64,000 nt of DNA, from contig JAHHIK010000035.1 in the NCBI GenBank assembly GCA_019358935.1, forward strand, positions 1 through 64,000, in the 5' to 3' direction. Made by a program: the position numbers and the translations under genes. Positions 2,211-56,954 of the stretch are shown here, in pieces. Source of the DNA: Tolypothrix carrinoi HA7290-LM1 (GTDB lineage: Bacteria > Cyanobacteriota > Cyanobacteriia > Cyanobacteriales > Nostocaceae). Positions within the stretch are counted from its first letter, which is position 1; each line of letters opens with the position of its first letter. The notes below the pieces were generated by a model. That model saw only the letters and a list, made by a program, of their open reading frames with translations. It was not told where the DNA came from and did not search any database.

Positions 2211-3691
2211 GTTTCAATTTCGTTGCCCGGTTTCATTTATTTGAAAGGTTAAGGTCATGTTGCCTACTGACGCTATCCGTGTTTCAATCCCGCAAGCGGG
2301 TTTCATTTTTTTGAAAGATAGCGCACGCCGCATTTTCGCTCACGAGCTATAGTTTCAATCCCGCAAGCGGGTTTCATTTATTTGAAAGTAACTATGCATT
2401 TGCATAAAAGCGATCGCTCTTAATTTGTTTCAATCCCGCAAGCGGGAATCATTTATTTGAAAGTGGTGAAAAATTAGGCGTTAAGTTTGAATATCCCGTT
2501 TCAATCCCGCAAGCGGGAATCATTTATTTGAAAGTTTCTGGTATGTCGTAATCTGGTGATGAATTGGCAGGGTTTCAATCCCGCAAGCGGGAATCATTTA
2601 TTTGAAAGTCAAAAGAGCCGCAAAGCTTGGCGTAAATAATTCCTTGTTTCAATCCCGCAAGCGGGAATCATTTATTTGAAAGACGGGTTCTTCCTTTTCG
2701 ATTGGGGGGCAGACTTAATGTTTCAATCCCGCAAGCGGGAATCATTTATTTGAAAGTGGGACTGGGGACAGCGAGTAAGTTACGCAAGTGTTTCAATCCC
2801 GCAAGCGGGTTTCATTTATTTGAAAGGGCAGATCGACAGTACTATGCTGACGTTGCATGGCGGTTTCAATCCCGCAAGCGGGTTTCATTTATTTGAAAGA
2901 ACTGATGTAGATGATCGAGCCACAGCAGTTAATGTGTTTCAATCCCGCAAGCGGGTTTCATTTATTTGAAAGTCAAGAATAGATTTGCGATTATTTCTGT
3001 TTTCAAGTTTCAATCCCGCAAGCGGGTTTCATTTATTTGAAAGTGGAATGTTTCTTTTTTGATGAAACCGCTTGTACTTGTTTCAATCCCGCAAGCGGGT
3101 TTCATTTATTTGAAAGTGGGACTTTATTCCGACGACTAGATGCTGCGAGAGTTTCAATCCCGCAAGCGGGTTTCATTTATTTGAAAGAATTTCAGGATTA
3201 TTTCAAAGGATTCCTGTTTGCAAGGTTTCAATCCCGCAAGCGGGTTTCATTTATTTGAAAGGTAAGTTCCTGTGCTATACACTATCAGTTTTAGTTTCAA
3301 TCCCGCAAGCGGGTTTCATTTATTTGAAAGTAGGACACGAGAAACATATTCTCGATTTTATAAATGGTTTCAATCCCGCAAGCGGGTTTCATTTATTTGA
3401 AAGTTGACTTAAAAATAGCAAATGAATACCGGAAAAGTTTCAATCCCGCAAGCGGGTTTCATTTATTTGAAAGAGTTCGGAGACTTAGAGAAAATGGGGG
3501 GACAACATAGTTTCAATCCCGCAAGCGGGTTTCATTTATTTGAAAGAAGAAATAGATGAGACAACTTTGACTTACTTTGATCGTTTCAATCCCGCAAGCG
3601 GGTTTCATTTATTTGAAAGTGAAGGCTGAGTTGTTACGCGAACATTCTATAATCGTTTCAATCCCGCAAGCGGGTTTCATTTATTTGAAAG
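2211..3691 (-). CRISPR. Type I-D CRISPR array: 21 repeats of 37 bp (sense CTTTCAAATAAATGAAACCCGCTTGCGGGATTGAAAC), 20 spacers of about 32-38 bp
   Basis: Repeats start (+ strand) at 2211 (degenerate terminal copy), 2281, 2352, 2427, 2498, 2572, 2646, 2720, 2790, 2863, 2936, 3007, 3080, 3151, 3225, 3294, 3367, 3437, 3510, 3583 and 3655. Orientation is taken from the ATTGAAAC 3' end, the degenerate distal repeat and the leader next to cas2. Confidence 0.98.
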
Positions 3692-11501: not shown

Positions 11502-13631
11502 CTAAAATATTGATGATTCAAATCGAGTTTGGAAAAACTTTTTTAATCGCCATTTCAGAGCTTCTAGTAGCAACGCATCTTGATTAAAAGCACAAGCGTA
11601 AGCTTGTTCCCCACCATCAGTCAAACGATACAAACCAAATAACGGATTGAGTTTGAGAATTTTACTAACTTCCCAGTGGCTATTTAGTGGCTTTTTAATG
11701 ACAGGAACCAAAAAAGCAAGTAATTTATTTTGTTTCAAACAAGCGATAACATCAGATTGAGGATGTCCGATTATACTCAGCTTGTCTACTAAATAAAGTT
11801 GACAAAAATGCAATTCGCTACTCTTGCGGCTGCAATGCAAGCTAATATCTTCTCGTTTGTCTAGCCAACTTTGAACCCGCAGATAAACTTTGATATAATC
11901 CTCTGGAAATTCTTCTTCTCCATGACCAGATTTAGATGCTGCTTGCAGATATGTTTCTCGGTCTGTGACTTCTACCATTGCATAAGGTAAAAATCTCAAC
12001 AGGTCATAAGTGTAAAATCTATTATTGTCCCAAACCGCAGCTTGTAAAGTCGAACCACCTCGAAACCGCAAAAGTTCTTGTTGCGTTGCTTTTTCGACAT
12101 CAGTTTTTTGCTTTTTACACCAATAACCACGTACTGATTCGATGCTTTGGGAATAGACGCGCTGCAAATCTTCAGTCATGCGATCGCGTACAATTTGACT
12201 TACCTTGGCGTTTTCCTGACTCATCCGCGTCAGCATCCCCTGTGCTTGCAATGCACCCCAACGCTTGCGATATTCATCGAATTCTTTGGGTGGGTCAAAT
12301 GCATAAGCGATGACATCTGTCAACTCGCTTCGTTCCACACTTTGACCGAGACTGAGTTTTTCTTGCAGTTTTGCCATTACCCAAGGTGTGCGATCGCCAA
12401 CCAAAATAAAAGCTGTGTATGCAGAAAAGTCAGGATGTCTTCCCAAACGACCCAAACGTTGCACCATAGTTGCCGAGTCGCTACTCTCAAAAATCAACAG
12501 GTGAATTTTAAAGTCAACCCCAACATCCACCGCAGATGTTCCCACAATCAAAACTGGTTGCTTGGCATCTTTAAGTTTAGCTTGGATTTCTAACCTTTCG
12601 TGACGGTCAATGCGTCCGCTAATTTCTCTAACAATAACTTCTGGGAGTAATTCCTGAAGTTTCCGAGTTATCAAACCCGCTTTGGCAACAGAATTGATAA
12701 TAATCAAACCTCTACCTTTCGACTCTGCATTCAATATTTTTTGAATATCAGAAGCCTTTTGGGTCAACCACGATAACGTATCTGTCTCTTTTAATTCCAC
12801 AAACTCTAATTCAACACGTTGGAGAATTTGCCGATAGCCAGGAGTATCTTCACTCGCATAAACTCCCTCAATTTCTGCAATCTTAAACCCAGTTTGCCGC
12901 AGTTGGTCAATGAAACCTGATTTGGGAGTCGCGGAAGTAAACAAAAATCGTCTGGGACGTGACTGATTTTCTTGGGAACGACGGATCAGCGTCATGCTAT
13001 TTAAAACCGCTGCTTCTTGATGCGGTCCGAAAATCGGAAACTCATCAAACACCCACAAATCTGGAAATTCTGCCAGCATTAAAGGTAGCAAGTCACCACC
13101 ATAAGCTGAATCTCGATACTGGAAGTGAGTAATGTAATGAAAAATATCAGGATTGGTCAGCAAAAACGGTTTATGTTCGATAGCTAGTAATAATTCATGA
13201 AACTTATTACTTTTTTCTGCTTGTTTGACTCGACGACTTAGTTCTGCACCAAATAAGCGGTCAACTCGTTGAGAAGCATCCAAACCAAACAAATCATGAT
13301 AGCGTTTTTGCTGTTCGGTCTGGTCTTCCACCAACTCGATGGTAGGATATAACCCCATTATGCGAAAATTAGGATCGAGCAATCCCGGTAACGAAGCACC
13401 TAGAGATTTTCCATCACCAGTTGCAGACTTATTAAAAATAATGTCTGCTTCCCCTTGGATAACGGCAGCACAAGTTTTTGCTTGGTGAGACGAGAGTGGG
13501 CAGGTGCAACCCGGAGGGGGTTTAAGATTGGATGCTTGTTGGTATACTTGACAAGTATATGTGCATCCCAGCGGACAATTGCCCACTCCCAGATTTAGTT
13601 GGGAGTAGAGAGGGTGTAAAAAAAGCTTCAT
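11502..13631 (-). CDS. cas3: Type I-D helicase Cas3'
   Basis: SATGDGKS (Walker A), DEFP (motif II variant), TSAT, VDVGVDF, QRLGRLGRH; no HD domain. Confidence 0.95.
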   Translation of the reverse strand: MKLFLHPLYSQLNLGVGNCPLGCTYTCQVYQQASNLKPPPGCTCPLSSHQAKTCAAVIQGEADIIFNKSATGDGKSLGASLPGLLDPNFRIMGLYPTIELVEDQTEQQKRYHDLFGLDASQRVDRLFGAELSRRVKQAEKSNKFHELLLAIEHKPFLLTNPDIFHYITHFQYRDSAYGGDLLPLMLAEFPDLWVFDEFPIFGPHQEAAVLNSMTLIRRSQENQSRPRRFLFTSATPKSGFIDQLRQTGFKIAEIEGVYASEDTPGYRQILQRVELEFVELKETDTLSWLTQKASDIQKILNAESKGRGLIIINSVAKAGLITRKLQELLPEVIVREISGRIDRHERLEIQAKLKDAKQPVLIVGTSAVDVGVDFKIHLLIFESSDSATMVQRLGRLGRHPDFSAYTAFILVGDRTPWVMAKLQEKLSLGQSVERSELTDVIAYAFDPPKEFDEYRKRWGALQAQGMLTRMSQENAKVSQIVRDRMTEDLQRVYSQSIESVRGYWCKKQKTDVEKATQQELLRFRGGSTLQAAVWDNNRFYTYDLLRFLPYAMVEVTDRETYLQAASKSGHGEEEFPEDYIKVYLRVQSWLDKREDISLHCSRKSSELHFCQLYLVDKLSIIGHPQSDVIACLKQNKLLAFLVPVIKKPLNSHWEVSKILKLNPLFGLYRLTDGGEQAYACAFNQDALLLEALKWRLKKFFQTRFESSIF

Positions 13632-13693
13632 TTCATTAACCCTGTGTTAGCTGAACACAGTTTATTACCCATTAGGGGAAAGTCGTAGTCAAA

Positions 13694-13736
13694 ATTTGAT
13701 ATCAATCTTTATCTATTGAAGCTTTTGATATCAAAT
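13694..13736. promoter_or_regulatory. Inverted repeat ATTTGATATCAA-N19-TTGATATCAAAT upstream of cas3', candidate regulator operator
   Basis: Perfect 12-bp arms, each containing the palindrome TTGATATCAA, 63-105 bp before the cas3' ATG. Confidence 0.5.
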
Positions 13737-13942
13737 AGAGAAAATTACTAAATGCAAACTTTGCCAGCAATTTAAATTCAATTACTGGCGTATTGTACTA
13801 CTTCTACAAAGTGAAGATAGCGAAAACACTACTTGTTGTTGGTTTCTACGTTACTACAATGTCGTAATCGTAGATAGAATACCCACACCCGAATCACCAG
13901 TATTTTCCGCAAGCTTCCTTTTGAAGGAGCTACAATTTAGCT

Positions 13943-14137
13943 TTAGTGCAACAAAGGAGGATTCAAATCCTTTTTCTGTGCATATATTCTGCAAGCCGTT
14001 ACAGAAACCTGCTTCCAAGCGGATAATCGGATTCGGTTAGTGTTTCCTGTCGCCGTTGATTGTTCAAGCAACAAATCGTAACTTTGCTCAATATTGAGAT
14101 GCAAAGATTCTGAAACTGTAGTAAAATTATGGTTCAT
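13943..14137 (-). CDS. Small hypothetical protein (64 aa, MNHNFTTVSESLHL...), candidate Cascade-repressed gene
   Basis: AAGGA about 10 nt before the ATG. Hairpin AGCTCCTT-CAA-AAGGAAGCT just after the stop (13912-13931). Lies downstream of the promoter targeted by the solitary repeat unit. Confidence 0.5.
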   Translation of the reverse strand: MNHNFTTVSESLHLNIEQSYDLLLEQSTATGNTNRIRLSAWKQVSVTACRIYAQKKDLNPPLLH

Positions 14138-14313
14138 TTGAGATTCAGTCCTTTTGGATAAATGACTAATTTGAGGCAAAAAGTATTGTTACTTGCCTCT
14201 AAGAATAAGAACTTTAAGTAACCTCCGTTGGAATGCCACTTCCTGCGGGGTTTTTGCTTAGGTTTTTACTCTTAATTAATTTTTACCACCTGCACGCCCA
14301 TTAAGTCAAGATA

Positions 14314-14337
14314 CTATTTGATTATATGTACAGTTAC
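14314..14337 (-). promoter_or_regulatory. Promoter -10 (TATAAT, 14326-14321) overlapped by a protospacer-like site with GTA PAM
   Basis: Minus strand reads GTA-ACTGTACATATAATCAAATAG, matching 14443-14463 at 17/21 positions. Confidence 0.7.
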
Positions 14338-14405
14338 CAAAAAAACTCTAATCCGGCTTCTGCCGACTTACTTAATGGTATTATTTTGGTAGGAAAGGCG
14401 GTTTT

Positions 14406-14482
14406 GTTTAATGTAATGAGTTCCTGCAAGCGGGATTGAAACACTGTCCATTTTATCAACTAGCCTTTCCCAAAGATTAAAC
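14406..14482 (+). ncRNA. crRNA-like RNA: solitary degenerate repeat (14406-14442), about 22-nt spacer, possible collapsed second repeat CTTTCCCAAAGATTAAAC (14465-14482)
   Basis: GTTTAATGTAATGAGTTCCTGCAAGCGGGATTGAAAC is 37 bp. Its last 13 nt are identical to the array repeat and the hairpin CCTG-CAAG-CGGG is preserved. Confidence 0.8.
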
Positions 14483-14528
14483 CATTAGAAGTTCCCTCGG
14501 ACAGCAAGAGATACTTGCACCGCGAACT

Positions 14529-15494
14529 ATGTCCTCGAACCAAAACAAAGATTACAACCAAATCGCCTTTGCCCTAGAAATCCTCAAACAGCTAGCAGAG
14601 AAGCCACGGAAGCGAGAAGAATTAGTTGACTTGCTATCTCCATTTATGGAAGCACACGGCAAGTCATCAGACGACATGGACATCAAGCAAAAACTCACCC
14701 GCACAATTCGCAAGCTGAGAGACTGCGGTATAGAAATTAAAAGTGCGCCTCACCATCCTTACGAACTGGTAGAGTCAAATTTCCCCGTTATTCTCTCAAC
14801 CGAACAGCGACAGGCATTAGCACTAGCAGCTTATTTCTTTGCGGGGATGGGCTTTTCTTTCCAAGCAAGCCAAATTTTGCGGATTGGTAATCTCAAAGAA
14901 TCTGACATTCCAGAATTTGTCAAAGTTAATTTTAGCCCTCCTGTTGATTACAGCGAGAACAAACTTGATGTTATTGTTCGCCACCTTCAGGAAAGATTTC
15001 AACAACAACGTCGTTATACTATTACCTACCAAAGCAACAAAGGAGGACAGCGTATTTGGGATATTGACCGCTCAGAATTGCGTTTTCATAACGGTGTTCT
15101 TTACCTTTTTGCATTTATTCCCGATTGGAAGTCGTGGCGATTTCCAACTTTCCCCAACATCGACCAAAATCATATATTTAGAGTAGATAGAATAGTTAAT
15201 GTTGGTCCTGCTTCTGATGTACATTGGCTATCTTGCGAGTTCCCCAAGTTGGAAATTCACTACCGCATGAGTGGTGACTTAGCAAACTACCAACCCCGTC
15301 GCGAGGGAGAACAAGTAATTCATCGAGATGCGGAAGGTAAATTTGTTGATATTGCTACACTAGAAGATTATTGGTTTTGGTTTCGACAGCGAATGTTGCA
15401 ATATGGGGCAAATGTTCAAATTTTAGCCCCAGACTTTTTAGCAAAAGAAATTAAACAGGAGCATGAAAAGGCATATGAAAAATATTGCTCATAG
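14529..15494 (+). CDS. WYL-domain transcriptional regulator associated with type I-D
   Basis: N-terminal wHTH-like region (LTRTIRKLRDCG), LYLFAF...FRVDRI WYL core and LQYGANVQILAP WCX tail; divergent from cas3'. Confidence 0.92.
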   Translation: MSSNQNKDYNQIAFALEILKQLAEKPRKREELVDLLSPFMEAHGKSSDDMDIKQKLTRTIRKLRDCGIEIKSAPHHPYELVESNFPVILSTEQRQALALAAYFFAGMGFSFQASQILRIGNLKESDIPEFVKVNFSPPVDYSENKLDVIVRHLQERFQQQRRYTITYQSNKGGQRIWDIDRSELRFHNGVLYLFAFIPDWKSWRFPTFPNIDQNHIFRVDRIVNVGPASDVHWLSCEFPKLEIHYRMSGDLANYQPRREGEQVIHRDAEGKFVDIATLEDYWFWFRQRMLQYGANVQILAPDFLAKEIKQEHEKAYEKYCS

Positions 15495-16638: not shown

Positions 16639-16977
16639 TTATTGGATTTCCATTGACCACGGTATCCCCTTATCTGGTGAAAAAAGATGAATTTTGGAGT
16701 TATTAGAAAACAACTTAAACTTTTTGACAAATTCGGGGATAGCGTTTGTGATATGACAGTAACTTTCAACGTCATAGCAGATCATAATTAACATCAAAGG
16801 GCTAGTATTTATCTGAAAATACCAGTGACAACTTGATAGTAAAACTCGCATAATCGGAGTACAGGCTTCGTAAAAGCGTCTGTTTATAGCTTCTTCAAGC
16901 TGCCTGTACATTAACTCAGTAAGTAACGTTGCCTTAGTCGTAGGCAAATCATCTGGATGAAGGTTAGATATATTCAT
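16639..16977 (-). CDS. Hypothetical protein
   Basis: 112-aa ORF with ATG start, co-oriented with the upstream genes. Confidence 0.7.
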
Positions 16978-16989
16978 AACGAGTAATTG

Positions 16990-17146
16990 TGAGTTGATAG
17001 TTGTTAGGTGTTAGTTCATAGTTGTTGGGTGTTAGTTGGAGCGTTGATAGTTGTTGGTTGTTGGTTGATAGTTGCTAACCACTAACCAATAACCACTAAC
17101 CACTAACAACGCTCCCACTATCCACTATCAACTAACCAATAACTAA
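16990..17146. repeat. STRR-type heptamer tracts (GTTGATA/GTTGTTG, then CCACTAA) forming a long imperfect palindrome
   Basis: Visible tandem 7-mers in opposite orientations. Confidence 0.8.
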
Positions 17147-24210: not shown

Positions 24211-24369
24211 TTATTCCTGCAATTTGTTTGGTGGGTCTTTTTGCATTTGTGCGATAGTCAAAAGCTATCGCTTGTAGAACATCGCACTCAAGGGAGGCGA
24301 TCGCTCTACAGCAAAAACTGTCGAAAGCCAATACATATTCTTGCTTTGAGTAAATTTTTGATTGTTAAT

Positions 24370-24495
24370 TGATAGTTGATAGTTGATAGTTGATAGTTGA
24401 TAGTTGATAGTTGCTAACCACTACCCACTAACCACTATCCACTAACCACTACCCACTACCCACTAACCACTAACCACTAACCCCTAACTCCTAAC
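24370..24495. repeat. STRR tracts (TGATAGT)n then (CCACTAA/C)n
   Basis: Perfect tandem 7-mers. Confidence 0.9.
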
Positions 24496-24497
24496 TT

Positions 24498-25628
24498 TTA
24501 TATCGTCGCTACAACATCCCCGGTTTTACTCGTGTCATAACCACCGAGAACTTCTAATTGAGAGTGAATCAAGCGATTTCCTAAAGTACCGAGTAACTGC
24601 TTTACTGGTGCTTCTTCTAAATATTCCTTGAGAATCACTAAATCGTATCTTGAGGAATGCAGAGGTACAAATCCCAGCCCAAAGGAAGCAGCTATAGATG
24701 CCGTACTGATGCCTGCGTTGGCAATACCTGATACTACGGCTTCGGCAACTTCTTGATGACTTTTAACGATATGGTCAAATCCTTTAACAGCGTGGAATGG
24801 TAGTTTTTCTTCTTGCAGTTTATGTTCCAAAAGCAAACGAGTACCAGCACCGAGTTCGCGGTTGACAATCATTGCTTTGGTGTCTACCAAGTCCGTTACT
24901 GTTTTAATTCCCATCGGATTACCAGACTCGACTAAGATTCCTTCTTCCCAAACACCAAGAGTAATTAAAACAGCTGCTCTTTCGGCTAGTAGTTCACGAA
25001 CAAAAGGAGTATTATGCTCTCCAGTTTCCGGATCGTATAGATGCATTCCGGCAATGTGAGCTTCACCTTTGCATAAACTATGCAATGCAGCCATGCTGTT
25101 GGCAAAGTTATGCTGAACTCGCAGTTGAGGATACCAGCGTTCCGTAGCTTGCGCCCATAATGAGAGTACAGGCGCACAGCCGACAATCACAACCGTGTTA
25201 TGGAGTTTGTCTATATCATCAAGAAGCCTAACCCGGACTGTGTTTGCATTTGAGAGGCTATTAATCTTACCATCAGCCGGAATCATCTCCAAGCGAAAAG
25301 CATCTTTCCCAACAAGAGGATATGCTATCCATTGCCCCCCAATCCGCGCTAGACTGACTGGCTGTTGTTGACTGCAAGAGATAGATTTGGCAAGAACTGC
25401 TTCAATTTCAAGTAGATCCTCCTCGAACCAGAATAGATCCGCGACTTGACAGCCAAGTACTTTGGCTAAACGAAGTGCGATCGCAACTGAAGGAGCATAC
25501 TGTCCTGACTCTACACCACTAATTGTCTGACGGGTAACTTTAGCTAGGTTAGCCAACTCTTGCTGACTCATACCTAAGCGAGTTCTCATTGACTTCAAGT
25601 TGTTACGGAGTTCACTATCCTGCTTCAT
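24498..25628 (-). CDS. XRE-HTH plus molybdate-binding PBP domain regulator (VnfR-like architecture)
   Basis: MSQQELANLAKVTRQTISGVESG HTH; GEAHIAGMHL and VNRELGAGTRLLL PBP motifs. Confidence 0.9.
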   Translation of the reverse strand: MKQDSELRNNLKSMRTRLGMSQQELANLAKVTRQTISGVESGQYAPSVAIALRLAKVLGCQVADLFWFEEDLLEIEAVLAKSISCSQQQPVSLARIGGQWIAYPLVGKDAFRLEMIPADGKINSLSNANTVRVRLLDDIDKLHNTVVIVGCAPVLSLWAQATERWYPQLRVQHNFANSMAALHSLCKGEAHIAGMHLYDPETGEHNTPFVRELLAERAAVLITLGVWEEGILVESGNPMGIKTVTDLVDTKAMIVNRELGAGTRLLLEHKLQEEKLPFHAVKGFDHIVKSHQEVAEAVVSGIANAGISTASIAASFGLGFVPLHSSRYDLVILKEYLEEAPVKQLLGTLGNRLIHSQLEVLGGYDTSKTGDVVATI

Positions 25629-31518: not shown

Positions 31519-33393
31519 ATGCCCCTCGATTTAACCCCTTTGTGGATATCCCTGAAAACCTCTTTACTTGCCACAATTATTACGTTTTTTGTCGGTATTG
31601 CCGCTGCCTATTGGATGTTGGGATACCGAGGTAAAGGTAAATCGCTGATTGAGGGAATCTTCGTTTCTCCGCTGATTTTGCCTCCTACAGTCGTTGGCTT
31701 TTTATTGCTGATGTTTTTTGGCAAATATGGTCCTGCTGGGCAATTTATGGAGAAATTTAACTTTAGCATCGTTTTTAATTGGTATGGTGCGGCGATCGCT
31801 GCCACTGTTGTTTCCTTCCCCTTGATGTATAGAACGTCACTGGGAGCTTTTGAACAAATTGACCAAAACCTCCTATTAGTAGCCAAAACCCTTGGTGCTT
31901 CCCAATGGACGATATTTTGGCGTATCATGTTACCTTTATCAATTCCGGGAGTTTTAGCCGGAACAATCCTGGCTTTTGCTCGTGCTTTGGGTGAATTTGG
32001 AGCCACCTTGATGTTAGCTGGCAATATTCCCGGACAAACTCAGACTATGCCACTGGCAATTTATTTTGCTGTGGAAGCGGGAGATAATAACGAAGCTTGG
32101 CTTTGGTCATTGGTAATTATGGCTACTTCTCTATCTGGGATTATTGCGGTGAATATTTGGCAGGAGGCAAGGGGGAAGAGGGGGAGAGGGGGGGACAAGG
32201 GGACAAGGGGACAAGGAAGACAAGGGGGACAAGGAAGACAAGGGGGTAATTCTTCCCCCATTTCCTACTTTGGTACAGACACAGGTTATCGCGTCTCTAC
32301 TCCCCATTCCACAGATTCTGGACTTTTTGTAGATATTGAGAAAAAGCTTGCTGGTTTTGAGTTGAAGGTATCTTTCAGTGCTGACAAGGAACCTTTGGGA
32401 TTGTTGGGGGGTTCTGGGGCTGGTAAGAGTATGATTTTACGCTGTCTTGCGGGGGTAGAAACACCGAGTTGTGGGCGGATTGTTTTGAATGGAAGGGTGT
32501 TATTTGATGCGGAACGAAAAATTAATTTACCTGCACGCGATCGCCGTATTGGTTTTTTAGTGCAAAATTACGCTCTTTTCCCACACATGACGGTAGCACA
32601 AAACATCGCCTTTGGTTTGCCGAAGGGATTATCTTCTACAGCAGTGAAGCAGCAAGTAGAGGCTCAACTGATAGATGTACAATTGCAAGGATTGGGCGAT
32701 CGCTTTCCACAGCAACTTTCCGGTGGTCAACAGCAACGAGTCGCATTAGCCAGAGCTTTAGCTTCTAGACCGGAAGCTTTACTTTTAGACGAACCGTTTT
32801 CAGCATTAGATACTCACTTGCGGAGTCAACTAGAACAGCAAATGATTGCTACCCTAGCTGATTACCAAGGAGTTACTTTATTTGTGACTCACAATTTGGA
32901 AGAAGCTTACCGAATTTGTCCAAATCTGCTAGTTATGGATCGAGGACAAGCAGTTCATTATGGCTCAAAATACGAAATTTTTGAGCATCCTGCCACAGTT
33001 AGCGTTGCTCAACTAACAGGATGCAAGAACTTCTCCGAAGCTAGCGCTCTTACACCCGAACTAATTGAGGCTGTTGATTGGGGTTGCAGGCTGCGAGTAA
33101 TTGAACCAATTCCAGACGAGCTATCCTCTGTAGGTATTCGCGCCCATCATATCACCTTTAAGGGCGACTCATCACAAGAAAATACATTTCCTTGCTGGTT
33201 GGTAAGAACTGTCGAAACACCGCACCGAATGACGTTGTTTTTGAAGCTGCATTCGTCTTCTACAAATAATCAAGATTATCATTTACAAGCCGAAGTATTC
33301 AAAGAGAAATGGACGACGCTCAAAGACCAACCTTTCCCTTGGTATGTTCATTTAGACTCGATGCGACTTATTCTCATGTCCGGGGAAAGGTAG
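31519..33393 (+). CDS. modBC: Fused molybdate permease/ATPase ModBC
   Basis: PLILPPTVVGF, FARALGEFGAT; GGSGAGKS, LSGGQQQR, LLLDEPF. Repeat-derived linker at about 32170-32310. Confidence 0.95.
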   Translation: MPLDLTPLWISLKTSLLATIITFFVGIAAAYWMLGYRGKGKSLIEGIFVSPLILPPTVVGFLLLMFFGKYGPAGQFMEKFNFSIVFNWYGAAIAATVVSFPLMYRTSLGAFEQIDQNLLLVAKTLGASQWTIFWRIMLPLSIPGVLAGTILAFARALGEFGATLMLAGNIPGQTQTMPLAIYFAVEAGDNNEAWLWSLVIMATSLSGIIAVNIWQEARGKRGRGGDKGTRGQGRQGGQGRQGGNSSPISYFGTDTGYRVSTPHSTDSGLFVDIEKKLAGFELKVSFSADKEPLGLLGGSGAGKSMILRCLAGVETPSCGRIVLNGRVLFDAERKINLPARDRRIGFLVQNYALFPHMTVAQNIAFGLPKGLSSTAVKQQVEAQLIDVQLQGLGDRFPQQLSGGQQQRVALARALASRPEALLLDEPFSALDTHLRSQLEQQMIATLADYQGVTLFVTHNLEEAYRICPNLLVMDRGQAVHYGSKYEIFEHPATVSVAQLTGCKNFSEASALTPELIEAVDWGCRLRVIEPIPDELSSVGIRAHHITFKGDSSQENTFPCWLVRTVETPHRMTLFLKLHSSSTNNQDYHLQAEVFKEKWTTLKDQPFPWYVHLDSMRLILMSGER

Positions 33394-54235: not shown

Positions 54236-56665
54236 ATGCAAGTTTCTTCTGCCGCAATTTTGACTTTAGCTACCTTAGTGACTAGCAACGCTACTGAAGC
54301 AATAGCTGCACCTTCTATAACTCCCACTCAGCCGGAAAAAGCCGGCTTAGTAGTGCCGGTGACACAAGAAAATACACCTGCACCGATAAAGGCGTACACG
54401 CAAAGCGGGTTGTCGCAAGACATCGCATCCCCAGAAACGATAGTCGTCCAACAATTTTCCCAAACTCCGGCTAATAATAATTCAACTGTAGTCGTAACAC
54501 AAGAGGTTGGGATAGGAGACAAGGGGACAGGGGGACGAGGGGGACGAGGGGGACGAGGAGGACGAGGAGGACGAGGAGGACGAGGAGGACAAGGGGGACA
54601 AGGAGGACAAGGAGGACAAGGAGGACAAGGCGGAGGAGGCGGAGGAGGAGGACAAGGCGGAGGAGGAGGAGGAGGACAAGGCGGAGGAGGCGGAGGAGGA
54701 CAAGGCGGAGGAGGCGGAGGAGGACAAGGCGGAGGAGGAGGAGGAGGACAAGGCGGAGGAGGCGGAGGAGGACAAGGCGGAGGAGGAGGAGGAGGAAGAC
54801 AAGGGGGACAAGGCGGACAAGGAAAAATTTCTCCCCCTGCTTCCCCTGCTCCCCCTGCTCCCCCTGCTCCCTTGTCTCCCCCCTCCCCCACTCCCCCCCT
54901 CCCCTCCTCCTCCACTCCCCCAGCTAACGAAAAGGATTTAGTCGTTACCGCTACCGATGTGCAGGTAGTGGGTGCTACTCCAGAATTGCAGCAAATAATT
55001 AACAGCGTCATTAAAACCCAAGCTGGGGGAGAAACCAGTCAAAACCAGATACAAAGAGATGTAGCGGCAATTTTGGATACGGGTTTATTTACTGATGTCC
55101 GTGTAAATACCACTATTAATCCGGTAGGATTGAGTGTGGTGTATCAAGTGCAACCATTGATAGTGCGATCGCTTCAACTTTCTGGGGCGAAAACGCTTAC
55201 CTATCAAGTAGTTTTGCCACTCTTTCAACCGCAAATTGGCAAAGCCATCAGTCCGGAAGCTTTGAAACAAACAGTAGAACAAATTAACAAATGGTACGCC
55301 GATAAAGGTTATAATCTGGCAAGGGTTATCTCTATTAAACCGAGCAGCGAAGGAATTTTGAGCTTAAATGTAGCTGAAGGTTTAGTGAGTAATATCAAGT
55401 TTCGTTTTGTCAACGATGAAGGCAATACAGTTGATAGCAAAGGTAAGTTAGTTACAGGACGCACCAAAGAAGATTTCTTGCGGCAACAGCTAAAGTTAAA
55501 ACCCGGTCAAATTTTCCAAAACAATCTAGTCAAGCAAGACTTGCAGCAGTTATATAAACTGGGATTATTTGAAAATGTCAATGTCGCCTTAGAAGGTGAT
55601 GCGACAGGCGTTGATGTAGTTTACCAACTAAAAGAACTTGGCGCACGCGGTATCAACCTCGGTGGTAATTACAATGCAGACCAAGGAATTGTCGGCACAT
55701 TAAACTATCAAGACCGAAATATCGGCGGTATTAACGATACTTTGAGCGCAAATGTGGAAGTCGGTGCGCGTGACTTTCAGTTTGATGGTAGGTATAGCAG
55801 TCCTTATCGAATAACTAACCCCGATCGCTTTGGTTACAGCATCAACGCTTTTCGCAAGCGCGGACTTTCCGAGGTTTTTGATGGCGATGTCAAGCTAGCT
55901 AACGCTGACAGACCGCGAGAAGGTAAAATAGGTGGTAGTGTAAGCTTGCAGCGACCGATTGACGGTTGGGATACTTCATTAGGATTTAATTATGCTCGTG
56001 TTAGCATACGCGATCGCGATGGCACAATTACCCCAAAAGATGAAAAGGGTAATCCACTAACTTTTAGCGGTACTGGTATCGACGATTTAGCTACTGTATC
56101 CTTCACCGCCATCAAAGACCAACGAGATAACCCCTTTAATCCTACCAAAGGTTCGATTCTCAGCCTCAGCACAGAACAATCAGTTCCGATTGGTCTAGGC
56201 AACATTTCGATGAATCGCCTGCGGGCAAATTATAGTCAGTTTCTCCCAGTTAAATTATACAACAGTAAGAACCCACAAGTATTAGCTTTGAATCTCCAAG
56301 GCGGCACCGTACTTGGAGATTTGCCGCCTTATGATGCCTTTAACTTGGGAGGTCCAAATTCCGTGCGCGGTTACGATGCTGGAGACGTTGGCAGCGGTCG
56401 CACTTACGTATTAGCTTCCGCAGAATATCGCTTCCCGGTTTTCCCAATCTTGGGGGGTGTGCTGTTTGCTGACTTTGGCTCAGATTTAGGTTCTGGTGAT
56501 ACAGTATTAGGAAATCCGGCAGGTGCGCGTAACAAACCAGGTAGTGGTTTTGGTTATGGTGCTGGTGTGCGTTTTGACTCACCTTTGGGCTTAATTCGCG
56601 CAGATTATGGTCTTAATGACTTGGGCGAAAGTCGATTGCACTTTGGCATAGGTCAGCGTTTTTAA
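54236..56665 (+). CDS. Omp85/BamA-TamA family outer-membrane protein with Gly/Pro low-complexity insert
   Basis: POTRA domains, [10 protein letters not shown]-terminal FGIGQRF. Confidence 0.92.
54510..54920. repeat. In-frame tandem repeats: 9-mers GGACG/AAGGA, 24-mers encoding GQGGGGGG, then CCCCTGCT-type units
   Basis: Directly visible in the sequence. Confidence 0.9.
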
Positions 56666-56670
56666 GGGAA

Positions 56671-56840
56671 TTGGGCATCGGGCAATGGGCATCGGGCAAT
56701 GGGCATCGGGCATTGGGCATTGGGCATTGGGCATTGGGCATCGGGCATTGGGCATTGATAATAATTCTTTCCCCCTTGTCCCCCTTGTCCCCCTCTCCCC
56801 CTGCCCCCTTGTCCCCCTCCCCCACTCCCCTTCTCCCCCA
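56671..56840. repeat. STRR tracts (TTGGGCA)n and (CCCCTTGT)n
   Basis: Directly visible tandem 7/8-mers. Confidence 0.9.
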
Positions 56841-56954
56841 GTTAAGAGTCCCCTACTGTATTATTAACAAAGACAAAACTGTGGCGATGTGGTTTTTGCT
56901 TTTACCACTCAAGGACTCACTACTAAGCTGCTCATTCAAAACTTAGGATTTTCT

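Follow-up and report, generated by a model that had tools for sequence, protein, structure and literature searches.

In the CrePA modules of Acinetobacter type I-F loci, a mini-CRISPR guide has a partial match, flanked by a protospacer-adjacent motif (PAM), 5' of a small open reading frame (ORF) in a gap between cas genes; the target lies 120-200 nucleotides (nt) before this ORF, homologues are confined to cas loci, and the toxin derives from a phage regulatory-protein domain (bioRxiv 10.1101/2024.01.05.574328). The CreTA RNA toxins (Haloarcula, and the proline-codon CreT of P. aeruginosa) combine repression by Cascade and a guide with a structured transcript. CreR, reported for type I-D, is a degenerate mini-CRISPR whose guide targets a cas-locus promoter (bioRxiv 10.1101/2023.03.10.532045), and Shmakov et al. 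predicted CRISPR RNA (crRNA)-like RNAs from I-D mini-arrays, aimed at the promoters of cargo upstream of the cas operon (bioRxiv 10.1101/2023.03.03.530964). In the same account this cargo is enriched in toxin-antitoxin genes and regulators, and empty relatives are common. CRISIS is further related published work. Several of these traits recur in a 64,000-nt stretch of the cyanobacterium Tolypothrix carrinoi HA7290-LM1 (GCA_019358935.1, contig JAHHIK010000035.1, positions 1 to 64,000; hereafter the window), where an ORF of 64 amino acids (aa) lies between a guide target and the cas3' gene of a type I-D system. We give roughly even weight for and against the reading that this is a CrePA-like module with the ORF as candidate Cascade-repressed small-protein toxin, and consider it highly probable that Cascade and the guide repress the promoter of the small gene.

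Solitary repeat, guide and target site

The small gene is contained in a gap of 898 nt between the divergent cas3' (minus strand) and WYL (plus strand) genes. The elements of the proposed circuit are:

14406-14442, plus strand: solitary degenerate type I-D repeat, in the orientation opposite to the array
14443-14464, plus strand: guide of 22 nt; the CTTTC after it is what remains of a second repeat
14376-14384, plus strand: putative extended -10 box (TGG-TATTAT) for the transcript of guide and WYL
14337-14314, minus strand: GTA PAM (14337-14335) and protospacer (14334-14314), with 17 of 21 guide positions paired
14280-14309, minus strand: likely small-gene promoter, with the -35 box TTGACT at 14309-14304 and TG-N-TAAAAA at 14288-14280
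13943-14137, minus strand: 64-aa ORF, which belongs to the short form of a CRISPR-linked family and is predicted to form a long beta-hairpin

The last 13 nt (3') of the solitary repeat are the same as in the array repeat, and its 3' end, ATTGAAAC, would form the 5' handle of a crRNA-like RNA. When the window is searched with the first 12 nt of the repeat, the solitary copy is the single minus-strand match; the array accounts for 20 plus-strand copies. The guide is shorter than the array spacers (22 nt versus 32-38 nt), and in two relatives (L004 and L043) the same 22-nt spacer ends in a full second repeat. As in CreTA and CrePA, a degenerate repeat and spacer within the cas locus could by their sequence give a crRNA-like RNA, and the guide has a partial match with the PAM of the subtype at the predicted cargo promoter. 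The mismatches fall at guide positions 6, 10, 12 and 18; in type I-D the PAM is GTN, and every sixth base is flipped out and tolerated as a mismatch (PMC10212523). Across the 7.96-Mb genome, the protospacer is the top GT-N-flanked match of the guide; an equal-scoring second site is flanked by TAG. The protospacer stops 5 nt upstream of the -35 box and lies about 700 nt from cas3'.

The guide precedes the WYL gene in the same orientation (14376-14529, plus strand) and lacks an intact second repeat, likewise in L006, L007 and L037; the 5' end of the WYL mRNA may therefore be the source from which the crRNA-like RNA is cut. A motif similar to the putative -10 box occurs at this place in aligned short-family loci; the consensus promoter scan of the window detected neither this inferred box nor the small-gene promoter.

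The initial annotation proposed that Cascade with a crRNA-like guide silences the small-gene promoter, and comparison with related loci strongly supports this at the level of sequence. The loci were gathered by their resemblance to the window, so their counts are not frequencies. Likely chance matches (L002, L049-L051, L057, P0028, P0032, P0033) and repeats of counted loci (L044-L048, L052, L056, L124, L128, L130) were dropped, and the fragment loci L055, L138 and L139 stand outside the 23-locus guide test. A solitary repeat is present in 20 of the 23 loci with an intact family gene, and in 19 of these 20 a GT-N-flanked site upstream agrees with the locus's own guide in 12-15 of 15 positions (0/200 shuffles each); one match is weak (9/200). 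About seven mutually unrelated guide sequences occur among the family loci. In L005 guide and target are altered in concert (AGTCT in both), and a second target is present in L004, L006 and L007. Pairing and co-variation of guide and target across the family are shown by these alignments. In 6 of 6 short-family loci the homologue sits between cas3' and WYL together with a solitary repeat, the arrangement that the annotation had proposed to look for.

Further features of the locus are:

2281-3691: CRISPR array of 20 repeats
11502-13631, minus strand: cas3' (type I-D), then cas10d, cas7d, cas5d, cas6, cas4, cas1 and cas2
13685-13736, no strand assigned: putative WYL operator, palindromic, before cas3'
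14529-15494, plus strand: WYL/WCX regulator gene, 3' of the guide on the same strand

Three intact loci have no guide (L040, L126, L129). In these, reading by eye, a palindrome like that before cas3' stands ahead of the promoter, and the gene would lie behind a putative WYL operator; binding by WYL is suggested by a review's account of Sll7009 (PMC12737573). The loci with neither a guide-target pair nor an operator (L055, L138, L139) have gene fragments only. In L008 and L009 repeat, target, promoter and ORF are all gone, and a scar of the spacer 3' end remains. The 24 complete gaps between WYL and cas3' comprise 8 with a family gene, 14 short ones with neither gene nor real repeat, and two occupied by ordinary arrays.

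Coding constraint and origin of the 64-aa ORF

The ORF had been called an orphan, a label that does not hold, as it has 16 homologues of 61-67 aa. A profile built from five sequences retrieved 13 proteins of 64-66 aa including that of the window, and an exhaustive search gave four more (61-67 aa, 44-52% identity), picked as ORFs with their genomic context not seen. A full short-form copy is found in 6 of 389 genomes of the host family, each behind a solitary repeat and a matched target. A single-protein search of 401 genomes of the host order returned the window and one weak match, the close relatives being outside that sample. No relative of the short form was found in viral contigs, and metagenome contigs gave one partial match of 22 residues.

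The ORF is intact in all six loci for which DNA is available, and its Shine-Dalgarno (SD) sequence and ATG are kept in 6/6. Across these loci the 192 ORF columns contain no gap event, whereas the two flanks have 14 (204 columns) and 5 (140 columns), and the p-distance is 0.15 in the ORF versus 0.27-0.28 in the flanks. In a neutral simulation the probability of finding no stop is 0.019 and that of the third-position excess 0.012. Codons 5-35 have pairwise ratios of nonsynonymous to synonymous divergence (dN/dS) of 0-0.68 (0.09-0.23 in the cas3' control). Sequence comparison shows coding constraint on the ORF, and we consider it very likely that it is translated into protein.

At the equivalent place L037, L040 and L042 have ORFs of 88-95 aa, part of a long-form family of 88-102 aa (31 rows). 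Long and short forms align ungapped from Met1 (probability 91.8%, E 7e-7), and the probability drops to 47.6% with the broadest alignment (0/60 shuffles). The short-form stop falls at the near-invariant Leu67 of the long form, and behind it lies:

13912-13942, minus strand: decayed in-frame remnant of the long-form wing (I-V-A-P-S-K)

The codons behind the stop are the best of 273 offsets in five of six loci and second best in the other; the six loci are kin, so the remnant counts as one event. In a 64-column unrooted tree all 17 short proteins cluster together (100/100), with a stem branch of 1.73 and short inner branches. By these comparisons the 64-aa ORF is shown to be a truncated relative of the long-form gene. 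The long form occurs in 15/389 genomes of the host family and 6/401 of the host order, and once one chance match is dropped, all its loci lie beside cas3', WYL or a Cas8a-like gene. Both forms are shown, in the genomes compared, to be confined to cas loci.

A truncated gene may also be a vestige of the long one, which recent ancestry, or a requirement to translate through the leader, has kept open for a time, with the circuit alone mattering. The stop at Leu67 with the decayed remnant after it, the loss of helix-core residues and of Tyr62/Gly65, and the near-neutral second half of the ORF all agree with this. Against it, all six loci are free of indels and stops, frame and length are held down to 44% identity (among proteins selected as ORFs), distant members exchange hydrophobic for hydrophobic residues, and a long stem branch (1.73) is followed by short ones. 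We regard a vestige as improbable.

The long-form family is probably of the Xis/MerR-type winged-helix kind; its profile and structure matches to the MerR-type winged helix are weak and under all family cut-offs. For the short form this fold was rejected (hhalign 0.9%, wing removed by the stop, all-beta model), and no helix-turn-helix (HTH) is detectable. The short protein is instead predicted as a long beta-hairpin, a fold that differs from that of the long form. A homo-tetramer prediction for the 64-aa protein scored 0.01, evidence neither way. A comparison with beta-barrel pore-forming toxins, whose amphipathic hairpins oligomerise into a barrel, spoke neither for nor against membership. 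Foldseek found no match at E <= 0.001 in PDB or BFVD, neither form matches a solved structure, and the ESM Atlas matches are to unnamed clusters only, with HU-like rows under the bar. An HU reading was rejected (hhalign 0.1% against one HU sequence), as was a RelE-like reading based on topology, to which VIA rows gave no support. The window ORF has no Pfam, NCBIfam or PADLOC match, and identity with KilAC (the CreP family) was rejected on this ground and because the long members gave nothing below E 0.01 in Pfam or PHROG.

Most long proteins (26/31) have the motif Qxx[LF]N[LFV] at residues ~10-16, in a low-confidence tail; its Gln is absent from the short form. It resembles sliding-clamp-binding motifs, which also have a hexamer form. 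One such motif is QL[SD]LF (PMC9690074).

The boldest scenario would have an excisionase-like winged-helix gene, repressed by guide or WYL, yield through one stop codon a refolded all-beta hairpin toxin, an alpha/beta-to-beta switch under Cascade repression in a cyanobacteria-specific family whose promoter and two-hairpin leader predate the protein. Taken as a whole, we consider it tentative and rather unlikely.

Promoter, leader and the transcript as candidate toxin

The motif TTGACT/TTGCTT-N17-18-TG-N-TAAA is retained in 6/6 short-family loci, and boxes of the type TTGAC-N17-TAAA occur at the same place in L042 and L056. The promoter is a sequence prediction, and the final base of its -10 box TAAAAA is non-canonical. 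The TATAAT at 14326-14321, earlier taken for the -10 box, is kept in none of four other aligned loci (three have TTTAAT and one TATTAT). Likewise, the 9-codon ORF MGVQVVKIN (14301-14272, minus strand) is present as annotated, but its ATG occurs in 0/5 other loci. It lies between the conserved -35 and -10 boxes, would therefore be absent from the transcript, and by this comparison is a chance ORF. The elements downstream of the promoter are:

14222-14250, minus strand: leader hairpin 1, with an inner GGAA/TTCC stem, a loop of 6-7 nt and a basal stem at ~14272-14202
14173-14199, minus strand: leader hairpin 2 (GAGGCA/TGCCTC), with the same arms in the long-form locus L042
14147-14167, minus strand: SD AAAGGA (14154-14149) under a weak stem, its AAGG kept in 6/6
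13763-13789, minus strand: 10-bp hairpin, possibly a 3' end or processing site, kept in 5/5 aligned loci

Both leader hairpins of the initial annotation stand: the first (14250-14222) buries a GGAGGT (14226-14221) with no start codon after it, and the second pairs GAGGCAA with TTGCCTC at 14199-14173. Two other structures fared less well. The stem of AGTC (14167-14164) and GACT (14150-14147) over the SD is present, but its sequence is not conserved, although some short stem is predicted there in 5/6 short-family loci; the closing hairpin exists (13931-13912, overlapping the wing remnant) but is weak. For hairpin 1, a counterpart was located by three anchor pairs, themselves circular as evidence, in 19 of 22 family loci; the outer pairs take the form C-G, G-C or T-A, and 9/19 loci have G-U at one inner position. 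No double compensatory changes occur among the six short-family leaders. The GGAGG, which is the 3' arm of hairpin 1, differs in its letters in most long-family loci.

Folding of the 135-nt leader gives z -4.0 (0/200 shuffles), and all 12 leaders folded reach z -2.2 to -5.2, including the short L054 leader that lacks the two hairpins. The leader may serve stability, attenuation or protein binding. No pairing in the style of type I toxins, between the SD and distant CU-rich segments close to the stop, is predicted, and Rfam gave two matches, both well under the gathering score. In the leaders of L053 and L131-L133, hairpins 1 and 2 are alike, both having CTGAA followed by CTTCCAC or a similar string, as duplicated units would. 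Such duplicated-looking hairpins resemble the repeat RNAs upstream of type III toxin genes.

A strongly structured leader that predates the short protein would suit a CreT-type RNA toxin, in which the leader itself, or an mRNA stalling ribosomes at Pro-Pro near its end, is toxic. Pro60-Pro61 is found in 13 of 17 short proteins, and a Pro-Pro-stop RNA toxin is known (bioRxiv 2026.06.02.729485). On the other hand, the set that defines CreT (conserved SD, start, mini-ORF with rare or Pro-Pro codons, and hairpin) is lacking here: no combination of SD, start and mini-ORF is conserved, the GGAGG is lost in most long-family loci, the prolines lie 3-5 codons ahead of the stop in a 64-codon ORF, and codons 5-35 are constrained at the protein level. 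The RNA branch of the original proposal is accordingly weak, and we consider an RNA toxin very improbable.

Proposed circuit and comparison with described systems

In the CrePA-like reading, Cas6 would excise a crRNA-like RNA from the solitary repeat, and I-D Cascade with this short, partly matching guide would occupy the GTA-flanked site just 5' of the -35 box, blocking transcription with no cutting. Loss or outcompetition of Cascade, or its inhibition by an anti-CRISPR, would let the promoter fire, and the structured leader with its weakly occluded SD would give a 64-aa protein that may arrest growth, thereby eliminating cells whose CRISPR system has failed. The Xis/MerR-like gene would have lost its wing to a stop codon and been remodelled, probably into an amphipathic beta-hairpin, and the protein might act by self-assembly or by beta-strand addition to a host protein, both guesses. 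The reading is supported by the finding that the gene is intact only where a repressor site (guide target or operator-like palindrome) is seen.

Several observations weigh against it. That pattern of broken and intact genes compares 3 with 3 loci, some of them kin. Codons 36-64 are near neutral (pairwise dN/dS 0.29-1.43), so the constraint is modest and confined to codons 5-35. Synonymous divergence (dS) is 0.33-0.43 in the ORF, far under the 1.5-2.0 of cas3', and recent shared ancestry or module exchange, or RNA-level constraint, therefore explains part of the conservation. The hairpin fold appears in one of five models (predicted local distance difference test, pLDDT, 84.5, the others 59-69; predicted template modelling score 0.44), residue alternation is significant in strand 1 alone (P 0.038; strand 2, P 0.24), and neither form matches a known toxin family. 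In Cas8a-like loci the long-form gene lies ~100-130 nt before cas8, so the guide there may serve cas-gene regulation.

A further possibility is a non-toxic accessory gene in CreR-type autoregulation, where transcription from the guide-repressed promoter would cover the small gene and continue into cas3' or cas8. The long form would then be a DNA-binding helper or regulator, and the short form a modified protein that partners with a Cas or host protein. However, cas3' has its own conserved upstream region of 100-130 nt, which suffices in gaps of 101-131 nt; since this region alone fills the module-free gaps, read-through into cas3' does not account for the ORF. In addition, L006 and L007 have insertions of 240-430 nt between ORF and cas3', the gene is missing from most I-D loci (16/24 gaps), and the short form has no detectable HTH. 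The scan found no terminator-like site on the minus strand; the hairpin at 13763-13789 has no U run behind it and contains a G-U pair in the window where other loci have G-C. If the transcript extends into cas3', toxin and autoregulation are both tenable. We consider the accessory role unlikely, though worth keeping in view.

The type I-D locus is complete and of the cyanobacterial kind (Cas10d, Csc2, Csc1, Cas6, Cas4, Cas1 and Cas2 are encoded). Its cas3' is 87% identical to that of L021 and 74-77% to those of loci having the small-gene module; from this pattern together with the dS values, module and cas3' seem to differ in history. Parts of the stretch are also covered by contigs from two other DNA sequencing runs, a search of sequencing runs showed no RNA data set that holds it, and the relatives with names are Nostoc, Aulosira and Scytonema. 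A Cas8a-like subunit, DevR-type Cas7 and Cas1d are found in L053, L058, L131-L137 and L124 (Nostoc plasmid NZ_CP151101.1, 190373-190648); in this system the regulatory guides imply a GTN PAM like that of I-D, and the long-form gene is the first cistron before cas8. Other genes near family loci comprise a DUF6887/DUF6888 pair in the WYL-cas3' gap of L042 (Pfam-checked; similar DNA in L004, L005 and L035), Uma2 genes in L040 and L124, and, at L054:937-1242, an MntA-like nucleotidyltransferase gene (match below cut-off) that has cas3 on one side and the solitary repeat on the other. The window has short tandem repeats of 7-9 nt, of the type typical of filamentous cyanobacteria, at 54469-54850, 32156-32246, 16963-17143, 24352-24502 and 56652-56846. 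Besides the main dnaN on C71, genome G000 has two extra dnaN (C173 and C9; L091, L092), each adjoining a dnaX-like gene.

The circuit is of a known kind, while the protein family and the leader were without description in the literature searched (figures and most supplements outside its scope), which also held no experimentally tested Cascade-repressed toxin from cyanobacteria or type I-D. What the locus adds is a candidate family for whose two forms guides, targets and promoters are defined, and one gene under two interchangeable repressors, guide or WYL; the fold switch, if true, would be a rare traceable origin of a new small protein from a DNA-binding domain. The long form shares with the Xis/BldC/HTH_17 MerR-type winged helices an LTTxEV helix 1, an ISxxxVR helix 2 and a wing, but differs from them in an N-terminal tail, a longer wing and about six additional residues that separate the helices. 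The loci may be among those of Shmakov et al., although the available text of that preprint (bioRxiv 10.1101/2023.03.03.530964) names no such small-protein family. CreR is defined by having no toxin gene, with its target at the cas promoter, whereas here a conserved ORF intervenes between the target and cas3', 700 nt away. CreTA RNA toxins require an SD, a mini-ORF and a hairpin, whereas here a 64-codon ORF is constrained as protein. The closest counterpart is CrePA, whose CreP is a 103-aa KilAC domain of type I-F (KilAC in the primary preprint, bioRxiv 10.1101/2024.01.05.574328, and KilA-N in the review PMC12737573) with proven toxicity, whereas the candidate toxin family described here belongs to I-D and Cas8a-like cyanobacterial loci, is Xis/MerR-like in its long and a predicted beta-hairpin in its short form, and is preceded by a two-hairpin leader.
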